41,589 bases of DNA, from NCBI GenBank assembly GCA_036444795.1, contig JAZFPV010000034.1, positions 1 through 41,589 of the forward strand, given 5' to 3'. A program made the translations under genes and the position numbers. Source of the stretch: Thermoplasmata archaeon. Its GTDB lineage: Archaea > Thermoplasmatota > Thermoplasmata > RBG-16-68-12 > JAJISG01. The notes under the pieces are model-generated. The model was not told where the DNA came from and made no database searches. It saw nothing but the letters and a program-made list of their open reading frames with translations. Each line of letters starts with the position of its first letter. Position 1 is the stretch's first letter. Shown here piece by piece: positions 5,513 through 7,081 of the stretch.

Positions 5513-7081
5513 CTACCCTTCCTTGGTCGGTGTCCGGTAGACCAGGTTCACCGCCCCGGTACCCAGGGTAACCGGCTGCCCGACGATGACGTTCTCCGCC
5601 ACCCCGTCCAGGTAGTCGACTTCTCCTGTCACCGCGGCGTGGAGAAGATGGTGCGAGGTGATCTCGAACGCGGCCCGGGCCAACACACTGGATTTGCGCC
5701 CTGAGATGCCGTGACGCCCGATGGCCTTCACGTCCCCGCCGTTCGTCATCATGTCCGAGACGAGCATGATGTGGCGGATGTCGACGGTGAGCCCTTGCTC
5801 GGCCAGGGTGCTCGCGGCCTCGCGCACGATGGCGTTTCGGGCCGCCTCGACCCCAAGAACTTCAAAGATCTCGGTGATGTTGTTGGAATTTGTCCGGACC
5901 TGGTCTACGTAGGGAAGATCCAAGGCCGCAGCCAGGTTGGAGCCCTCCGTATAGATGACGTACTCGTCGCCAAGCCGACGGATAATCGCGCGCTTGACGC
6001 CGTCGATACCCTTGATCTTGGAGGTCTTTACGGTCTCCAGGTTCTTCTGAAGTCGTTTGTAGGAGACCTGGTCCGAATCCATGATGTATGCCTTCACCTT
6101 TCGTCCTTTCTTGCCCTCGACCCGCTTGACCTTCTCTCGCCGCATCTTGGAGAGCGTCTGATCCAGGTCTTTCCACGTGACCCCCCGGCTCCGCATCTTC
6201 GCCTCGCTGGGATAGACCACGACACGATTGTTGAGGATGTCCGTCTCAATGTCGGCGATGTCCTCCAGGTGGGTCATCTCAATCTCCGCGGCGTGCTGCC
6301 GCATGCGGTCGAGGTCGTCCGCTCCATCGCTCACGAAGACCTCCATCACGGGGGTGGAAGGCACCCGGCGCGCATCCACGATCTCGATGAGGCGGGGGAG
6401 CCCGAGGGTGACGTTCATCTCCGCGACCCCCGCATAGTGAAACGTTCGCATCGTCATCTGGGTCCCGGGTTCGCCGATGGACTGGGCTGAGACGATGCCC
6501 ACCGATTCGTTGGGATCGACGAGATGGGTGCCGTAGTGATCCCAGAGGGACTCCACGACCTTCTCCAAATCCGGGTTCTTCAGCTTGAGCTTTTCCGCCC
6601 GGACAGCCAGGTTCCCAATGAGGGAAGAGGGCAGGTCTCGCTCCTTGGCCTGGAGGATTCTCATGATGCGCTTCTCCCAGGCGGACGGTTCCGGCACCTT
6701 CGAGGGGACGGTGGGGCGGGGTCCGGGCTTCTTCTTGGCGGCTTTCTTTGCGGGCTTCCTTGCCGTTTTCTTCTGGGCCGACTTCTTGGCCGCGGGTTTC
6801 TTGGGTGCCTTCGTGGCAGGGGCTTTCTTCTTGGGCGTCCCCTTCTTCGTGGGAGAAGCCTTCTCCTTAGGCGTGGCCTTCTTCGGCGGCGGTGCTTCTA
6901 CCTTGATGCCCAGGCGCTTCAACGCCCGGATGGCGTCGTCCTGGGGCACCACCTTCTCCAGGTCCTTGAGCTTCGCCTTCTTCAGGGACGCCATGGTGTA
7001 GCCGGCGTCCACGAGAAGGGCCGCGGTCTTGGCCCCCACCTTCCGGCGCCGCAGGGCGTCGATCGTGTCTTTCCTCGCCAT
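5513..7081 (-). CDS. rpoA2: DNA-directed RNA polymerase subunit A'' (Rpo1C) with a ~130-aa non-canonical N-terminal extension
   Basis: Core motifs [25 protein letters not shown] and the C-terminal [10 protein letters not shown]. At 522 aa it is longer than the roughly 390 aa I recall for A''. The ATG lies 1 nt after the rpoA1 stop. Confidence 0.9.

Follow-up and report, generated by a model that had tools for sequence, protein, structure and literature searches.

A putative tethered DNA-binding arm at the N-terminus of RNA polymerase subunit A'' in Thermoplasmata

The 41,589-nucleotide contig JAZFPV010000034.1 of a Thermoplasmata archaeon (assembly GCA_036444795.1), referred to here in its whole length as the window, encodes an A'' subunit (RpoA'', Rpo1C) of RNA polymerase (RNAP) with ~128 more N-terminal residues than every solved archaeal A'' (391-397 aa), and this raises the question of what such an addition to a catalytic subunit is and what it might do. 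We favor, with moderate confidence, a reading in which this RpoA'' consists of the canonical catalytic-subunit fragment and a putative tethered arm that would bind duplex DNA without sequence specificity. The predicted arm comprises a small basic domain of two helix-hairpin-helix (HhH) units, hereafter (HhH)2, and a long disordered linker.

Canonical core and translation start

The A'' open reading frame (ORF) spans positions 5513..7081 of the minus strand and encodes a protein of 522 aa and 57.3 kDa. The landmarks that define its core and its start are as follows.

5513..6697, minus strand: canonical RpoA'' (Rpo1C) core, residues 129-522 and stop codon, delimited with TIGR02389, Pfam Rpb1 domain 5 and Thermococcus A''
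7079-7081, minus strand: A'' start codon ATG, 1 nt after the rpoA' stop codon TAA (7083-7085)
7088..7092, minus strand: Shine-Dalgarno-like GGAGG, 6 nt upstream of the A'' ATG, read from the sequence

The protein is identified as RpoA''/Rpo1C by a full-length match to the NCBIfam model TIGR02389 (rpoA2 equivalog, 367 positions), in which residues 150-515 correspond to profile positions 2-366 with a score of 462.3 bits, above the curated cut-off of 420.65. The Pfam Rpb1 domain 5 (RNA_pol_Rpb1_5) covers residues 148-465, and a PDB sequence search returned the Thermococcus A'' chain 4qiw_C with an E-value of 9e-102. In the solved A''/Rpo1C chains of Thermococcus, Pyrococcus, Sulfolobus and Saccharolobus, the counterpart of residue 150 is residue 20-24, which places the canonical start near residue 129, slightly upstream of the ~133-140 proposed in an earlier note on this DNA, and leaves the ~128 residues before it as surplus. 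The solved chains measure 391 aa in Thermococcus kodakarensis, 397 aa in Pyrococcus furiosus and 392-395 aa in Sulfolobus and Saccharolobus, and alignment, a check suggested in the same note, confirmed that the structurally studied archaeal RNAPs lack the extension. The two parts differ in isoelectric point (10.9 for the extension, 6.6 for the core), and the core opens with a helix at residue 134 in a full-length AlphaFold2 model.

Translation of A'' from Met1 is supported with high confidence by sequence evidence, because of the GGAGG motif, the coupling to rpoA', the conservation of Met1 and the dN/dS (ratio of nonsynonymous to synonymous substitution rates) of the N-terminal domain. In five related loci (L001, L003-L006), 0-2 nt lie between the A' stop and the A'' ATG, and Met1 and Ala2 are kept in 96% and 92%, respectively, of 272 distinct homologous N-termini. 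In comparisons with the two nearest loci, the domain has dN/dS values of 0.03 and 0.05, the core 0.10 and the linker 0.09-0.30, and many indels also occur in the linker. Conserved positions and purifying selection indicate that the extension is not a chance lengthening of the ORF, in agreement with the earlier proposal that it is translated as part of A''. Two antisense ORFs on the plus strand (6524-7306 and 6585-7001) were dismissed as high-GC artefacts in view of the strong purifying selection on the minus-strand frame.

The opposite view, already raised in the earlier note, is that the extension is an annotation artefact, with the real A'' beginning at the internal Met140 and the in-frame stretch upstream of it forming no part of the subunit. 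A GGGAG-like stretch does lie upstream of Met140, and NCBI annotations of some relatives do begin A'' at the core: in the clusters of two relatives, P0150 and P0168, members of 388 and 434 aa occur beside the 608-aa form, or the N-terminal piece is labelled 'hypothetical protein'. Met140, however, is not conserved among aligned homologues, whereas Met1-Ala2 is; the domain upstream of it is under purifying selection and confidently predicted to fold, the GGAGG stands 6 nt before Met1, and 216 of the 224 retrieved A'' homologues carry the domain. We therefore regard a mis-called start as effectively excluded. What the P0150 and P0168 clusters do reveal is that automatic annotation at times loses the extension, a point of practical relevance given that some database entries drop it or name it a hypothetical protein.

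The N-terminal domain and its linker

Within the extension and at its junction with the core, the following features were identified.

6902..7081, minus strand: basic (HhH)2-type five-helix domain, A'' residues 1-60, net charge +9 (AlphaFold2, Foldseek, hhalign, dN/dS)
7028..7045, minus strand: first HhH hairpin, R13-K14-V15-G16-A17-K18 (column frequencies over 272 distinct domains)
6698..6901, minus strand: predicted disordered Lys/Pro/Ala-rich linker, A'' residues 61-128 (68 aa, net charge +23), from composition, predicted local distance difference test (pLDDT) and indels
6809..6885, no strand assigned: imperfect 36-nt (12-codon) tandem duplication in the linker (Tandem Repeats Finder: period 36, 2.1 copies, 80% matches, score 98)
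6689..6712, minus strand: junction motif T-V-P-S-K-V-P-E, residues 124-131, directly preceding the start of the canonical A'' (alignment A6)

Predicted structure and profile comparison together identify residues 1-60 as a real (HhH)2-type domain, a member of the HhH superfamily by fold and by sequence-profile similarity. An AlphaFold2 model of residues 1-62, built with 17 homologous sequences, has a mean pLDDT of 87 and five helices (residues 3-12, 17-25, 30-35, 38-41 and 47-56) arranged as two HhH units, and the full-length model returns residues 1-60 at pLDDT 83-89. A Foldseek search of the PDB placed the RAD51 N-terminal domain first (8xbw_L; template modelling (TM) score 0.71, root-mean-square deviation (rmsd) 1.9 A over 56 columns, probability 0.99), with further matches to FAAP24, ERCC1/XPF, DMC1, RadA, the UvrC C-terminus, NusA AR and a Y-family polymerase thumb, all of them HhH or (HhH)2; the top TM scores were 0.70-0.74, at E-values of 0.3-3. 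In a profile comparison, hhalign aligned 21 A'' N-terminal domains (A4) to 10 canonical HHH_5 units (A5) over 46 columns with 95.3% probability and an E-value of 2.4e-8, and the family profile (A1) matched a protein with seven HHH_5 units (P0132) at 6e-20. The HhH-like motif that the earlier note had seen in residues 1-62 is thus borne out by model confidence, fold and profile alike. A stretch of the window's domain is nearly identical to the canonical HHH_5 sequence GVGAKTAESLKDAGY, and VGAKTA..L.DAGY matches the HHH_5 units of P0132. In a PDB sequence search with the domain profile, Rad51 and DNA-ligase HhH matches appeared only at E-values of 0.4-2; the top match in that search, to DotG/IcmE repeats, was rejected as a spurious 'DAGFT..LK' similarity to a repeat protein.

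Column frequencies over the 272 N-termini single out a small set of nearly invariant positions (T6 98%, A9 96%, L10 97%, R13 98%, G14 88%, A/S20 98%, G27 87%, F/Y28 91% and L33 90%). The first hairpin follows the family consensus R(98%)-G(88%)-[IVL]-[S 55 / G 11 / A 9%]-x-[KR], position 18 being Lys or Arg in 71% of domains. The basic character of the domain is shared across the family, with a median net charge of +8 in 111 homologues.

The linker that follows (K 33%, P 20%, A 19%) falls below pLDDT 50 and lacks secondary structure from residue 64 to 118 in the full-length model. The earlier note had delimited a Lys/Ala/Pro-rich stretch at residues 63-120 (6722-6895), and both its exact coordinates and its predicted disorder agree with our results. 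A tether is present in all family members compared, although its length (31-71 aa, median 41) and sequence vary. Because its net charge lies between -3 and +30 (median +5), the lysine richness of the window's linker is, in these sequences, the extreme of its own clade and not a defining family trait; what the family conserves is the basic HhH domain and a tether, not the charge of the tether. The tandem duplication, together with weaker 12- and 18-nt periodicities at 6732-6884, points to linker growth by slippage or duplication, and it is likely the source of the fast variation in linker length among relatives. At the far end of the linker, the junction motif is well kept, with K128 invariant and P126 present in at least 90% of 42 aligned homologues (family pattern [IV]P.K.P).

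The same data bear on the likeness to the C-terminal tail of histone H1, mycobacterial HupB and chlamydial Hc1 proposed in the earlier note. By composition alone the window's linker qualifies as a tail of this kind, being K/A/P-rich, low in complexity, predicted disordered and polycationic, as well as internally duplicated. The resemblance does not extend to homology, and a Pfam scan of A'' found neither a linker-histone globular domain nor an HU fold. The analogy thus describes the composition of this linker but not the family, in which charge is not conserved and the lysine-rich form would be a clade-specific elaboration of a generic tether.

Distribution and variants of the extension

The distribution of the extension was drawn from protein searches and from a profile search of 1.84 billion cluster representatives, the relatives coming mostly from metagenome-assembled genomes (MAGs). 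The best 120 matches to the full-length protein are all A'' proteins of ~440-545 aa labelled 'Thermoplasmata' or 'Thermoplasmatota', and the N-terminal domain is present among them down to 52% overall identity. The domain-profile search returned 153 proteins at E-values up to 1e-3, nearly all the non-spurious ones with the domain at residue 1; many multi-stretch matches were set aside as spurious repeat proteins, with the same 'DAGFT..LK'-type cause as the DotG/IcmE match. Among retrieved A'' proteins, 112 of 119 in one set and 104 of 105 in another bear the domain, the exceptions being truncated or having a mis-called start. Names found among the carriers include Thermoplasmata, Thermoplasmatota, 'uncultured Methanomassiliicoccales', Aciduliprofundum sp. 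and Candidatus Proteinoplasmatales SG8-5, and a search with P0136 aimed at cultured Thermoplasmatales returned MAG sequences only.

In a published chromatin-proteomics table, the A'' of Thermoplasma acidophilum (Q03586, Ta0392) is listed at 56.6 kDa, compared with 43.7 kDa for Thermococcus A'', and is among the proteins found by mass spectrometry in chromatin fractions (PMC7325993). Since the listed mass is close to the 57.3 kDa of the window protein, T. acidophilum A'', and with it a long-public sequence, probably carries the extension too. As judged from the sequences retrieved, the add-on is spread across Thermoplasmata and Thermoplasmatota MAGs, in which ~217 A'' clusters bear it, and is not private to one lineage; the earlier suggestion that 'this lineage' had built it has to be abandoned, the more so as the T. 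acidophilum subunit is also oversized. Full-text literature searches found no description of an HhH extension on A'', nor does a 2026 review of the evolution of archaeal RNAP subunits mention one (PMC13257274), and the extension is apparently undescribed.

Longer variants provide a further line of evidence. Eleven long matches (608-1024 aa) were examined with Pfam, of which 10 are A'' proteins with longer extensions, one of these with an intein. Extra canonical HHH_5 copies are present in the long A'' forms P0168 (E-value 6e-16), P0143, P0196 and P0261, giving relatives of the window's A'' with two to three HhH copies. The addition of canonical HHH_5 units at the same place is the pattern expected if the arm were selected for nucleic-acid binding. 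In many long A'' variants (608-836 aa), an unassigned domain of ~130 aa is inserted once or twice between the HhH domain and the core, often alongside extra canonical HHH_5 units; it is recognizable by the motifs IIWS ... FP.N ... GY.Y.K ... SARNYTQ in eight members (P0143, P0146, P0148, P0150, P0185, P0196, P0254 and P0261; alignment A7) and has no Pfam and no PDB sequence match. With their differing leashes and extra domains, the relatives form a natural set in which tether length and charge could be related to the affinity of the polymerase for DNA.

Outside A'', the domain was found in few proteins, among them a membrane protein and a zinc-ribbon protein. The eleventh long match, P0132 (950 aa), is a topoisomerase VI subunit A/Spo11 homologue with seven tandem N-terminal HHH_5 domains, another core DNA enzyme with an HhH array.

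Possible roles, known parallels and the surrounding locus

Where the arm leaves the enzyme bears on what it could reach. We place the split between A' and A'' at the 'foot' of Rpb1, which belongs to the shelf module, beside Rpo5 and under the downstream DNA cleft. The alignments fit this location, with the canonical A' end near Rpb1 residue 900 and A'' residue 170 corresponding to RPC1 residue 1009. The A' side of the split carries an addition of its own.

7086..7187, minus strand: acidic RpoA' C-terminal tail, ~34 aa past the canonical A' end (alignment to Thermococcus A')

In that alignment, residue 163 of the 205-residue A' query corresponds to residue 898 of the 906 of Thermococcus A'. In the five related loci the last 35 aa of A' have a net charge of -7 to -14 and a conserved AGYG.[QR]EKD. 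With an acidic A' tail and a basic A'' arm, the A'/A'' split is therefore extended on both sides.

This arrangement invites the idea that the basic arm pairs mainly with the acidic A' tail, as an electrostatic clasp for A'/A'' assembly or as an auto-inhibitory switch released by DNA. The two extensions flank one split site, their genes are translationally coupled, and the acidity of the tail past the canonical A' end is kept in relatives. A simple charge clasp, however, needs no folded and highly conserved HhH domain, the linker is near neutral in many relatives, and co-occurrence with the acidic tail was surveyed in five related loci, so that we give the clasp a slim chance.

For a tethered DNA-binding arm, the reading we favor, the parts would fit together as follows. 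The ~68-residue Lys/Pro/Ala leash leaves the core at the A'/A'' split, and hairpin 1 (R13, G/K14, h15, G/S16, K18) with nearby basic residues may hold the backbone phosphates of double-stranded DNA irrespective of sequence, a behavior known from other (HhH)2 modules. DNA flanking the polymerase, downstream or upstream, could come within reach of the domain through the leash, whose polycationic character in the window's clade might add an electrostatic affinity like that of a histone H1 tail. The effect would be a higher local affinity for DNA, and with it stabler promoter or early complexes, greater processivity and salt tolerance, or several of these. There is precedent for such an effect, as HhH domains of topoisomerase V fused to DNA polymerases raise DNA affinity, processivity and salt tolerance. 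Sequence comparison and modelling provide for this scheme the predicted fold, its kinship with HhH units of the DNA type, a first hairpin that is conserved and basic, a leash predicted to be disordered, the purifying selection and the repeated accretion of HhH units at one site in relatives; from these we infer DNA binding, the reach of the leash and a physiological role. Thermoplasmata have been reported to lack TFE alpha and beta (review, PMC7289017), and the arm may be especially useful in such a group, where it yields a testable hypothesis for how DNA is loaded and held.

Several observations weigh against this reading. The Foldseek E-values are not significant, which we attribute to the very short query. 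None of the Pfam HhH models reaches its gathering score (HHH_2 scores 16-20 bits, with a cut-off of 27), and HHH_5 matched below threshold in 6 of the 21 members compared, so that by these criteria the domain is a divergent HhH branch that no curated Pfam HhH family covers. Across the 272 domains, glycine is not conserved in hairpin 2, which leaves one canonical DNA-contacting hairpin, and in the window's clade the first glycine of hairpin 1 is replaced by Lys, the second being kept (K-V-G). The near-neutral linkers of many relatives mean that an H1-like tail is not a conserved function. Folds of the (HhH)2 and SAM-like types are also used for contacts between proteins, and ERCC1/XPF, FAAP24, NusA-AR and SAM are among the Foldseek matches. 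Where the A'' N-terminus sits on the enzyme is taken from background knowledge, and compensation for the loss of TFE is an attractive idea drawn from a class-level correlation in a review (PMC7289017).

The protein-protein matches lead to an alternative that we consider unlikely but not negligible, namely that the (HhH)2 domain is a leashed docking module that recruits a transcription, repair or chromatin factor, or that pairs RNAPs with one another. NusA-AR2 binds the C-terminal domain of bacterial alpha (alpha-CTD), and ERCC1/XPF and FANCM/FAAP24 dimerise through (HhH)2 domains. A degenerate second hairpin would suit such a role, as would the presence of heterodimerising (HhH)2, NusA AR and SAM domains among the fold matches, and the strictly conserved surface positions of helix 1 (T6, A9 and L10) are not classic DNA-contact positions. 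Docking does not readily account for the conserved and strongly basic net charge, for hairpin 1 with R13 and G14 as the best-conserved element, or for the canonical DNA-type HHH_5 copies added in relatives, and it comes without a candidate partner.

Lysine-rich disordered tails bind any polyanion and a NusA-like KH protein is encoded nearby, so the arm might instead bind RNA, either the nascent transcript or a regulatory RNA. We rate this as very improbable, given that HhH modules characteristically bind the duplex DNA backbone, that the close fold matches are all DNA-associated, and that the A'' N-terminus lies, as we presume, far from the RNA exit channel.

Extending the DNA-binding reading to the whole group leads to a bolder picture, decidedly speculative and in our judgement improbable, in which the A'/A'' split of Thermoplasmatota RNAP is a docking port for a modular nucleic-acid-binding arm. 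Its parts would be one to three HhH units, the ~130-aa domain (in some lineages, in one or two copies), a tunable leash and a matching acidic A' tail, and it would act in cis as an initiation or DNA-loading factor replacing TFE.

Among known systems, the bacterial alpha-CTD (RNA_pol_A_CTD) is the best 'works like' analogue of the A'' arm at the level of design, being likewise a small helical HhH domain that a flexible linker ties to a subunit of the RNAP core. It binds neighboring DNA (UP element, minor groove, backbone) and makes promoter complexes more stable. Unlike the A'' arm, which occurs in one copy at the N-terminus of A'' on a linker of 31-71 aa, it sits at the C-terminus of alpha, the counterpart of Rpo3/Rpo11, in two copies and on a short linker. 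The A'' domain does not itself belong to this family, as alpha-CTD matched neither in Pfam (PF03118) nor in the PDB sequence search or the Foldseek top 50.

Rpo13, a separate small subunit with a helix-turn-helix-like fold, had been offered in the earlier note as a parallel. The A'' feature, by contrast, is fused in cis, has the (HhH)2 fold and occurs in Thermoplasmatota; the Rpo13 chain (in PDB RNAP entries such as 2waq and 3hkz) was absent from the PDB sequence matches at E-values up to 10 and from the Foldseek top 50. With no similarity of sequence or fold in these searches, the analogy can be functional at most. Rpo13, which is restricted to Sulfolobales, nonetheless provides a precedent for a lineage-specific, DNA-proximal add-on (PMC7289017).

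The closest fold is that of the N-terminal (HhH)2 domains of RadA, RAD51 and DMC1 (TM 0.70-0.74, rmsd 1.7-1.9 A over 55-56 residues), with which, as with HHH_5, the A'' domain shares the pattern G-h-G-x-K-T-A..L..AGY and the layout of a DNA-binding N-terminal module on a flexible connection. It differs from them in sequence (~21% identity), in lacking G-h-G in hairpin 2 and in its host enzyme. Topoisomerase V arrays and HhH-polymerase chimeras are similar in that non-specific (HhH)2 modules are appended to a nucleic-acid enzyme; unlike the topoisomerase V arrays, the domain here occurs once, at the end of a long disordered leash, with RNAP as host.

To our knowledge, archaeal RNAP is generally regarded as uniform and Pol II-like, with Rpo13 described as the only archaea-specific subunit. 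The A'' arm suggests that a whole class or phylum shares an addition fused in cis to a catalytic subunit and alpha-CTD-like in design. Tethered nucleic-acid-binding domains on core RNAP subunits are a kind of arrangement already known, and accretion of domains by RNAP is not in itself very surprising.

In its genomic setting, rpoA'' stands directly after rpoB (9851-13444, unsplit) and rpoA' (7083 to ~9854) in a minus-strand operon that continues with an L7Ae/L30e-family gene (5234-5509) and the NusA-like KH gene (4800-5225); the assignments of A', L7Ae/L30e and KH/NusA-like proteins are from Pfam. The listed rpoA' ORF begins at a GTG at 10034, inside rpoB (9851-10034, minus strand), and the Pfam Rpb1 domain 1 match in this long ORF starts at residue 71. 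From the sequence, the true start of rpoA' is likely the ATG at 9852-9854, which forms an overlapping ATGA with the rpoB stop (9851-9853) and gives an A' of ~923 aa.

Elsewhere in the window, a stand-alone 5S rRNA gene (21532-21649, plus strand, 81.9 bits) has no adjoining 16S or 23S rRNA gene within the window, and a single tRNA gene was found at 30657-30742 (plus strand). Downstream of the transcription gene cluster, after an ORF at 3959-4816, lies a minus-strand gene (3063-3929) for a 288-aa protein that matches DUF7121 (E-value 8e-10) and is coiled-coil-looking, highly charged and repetitive.

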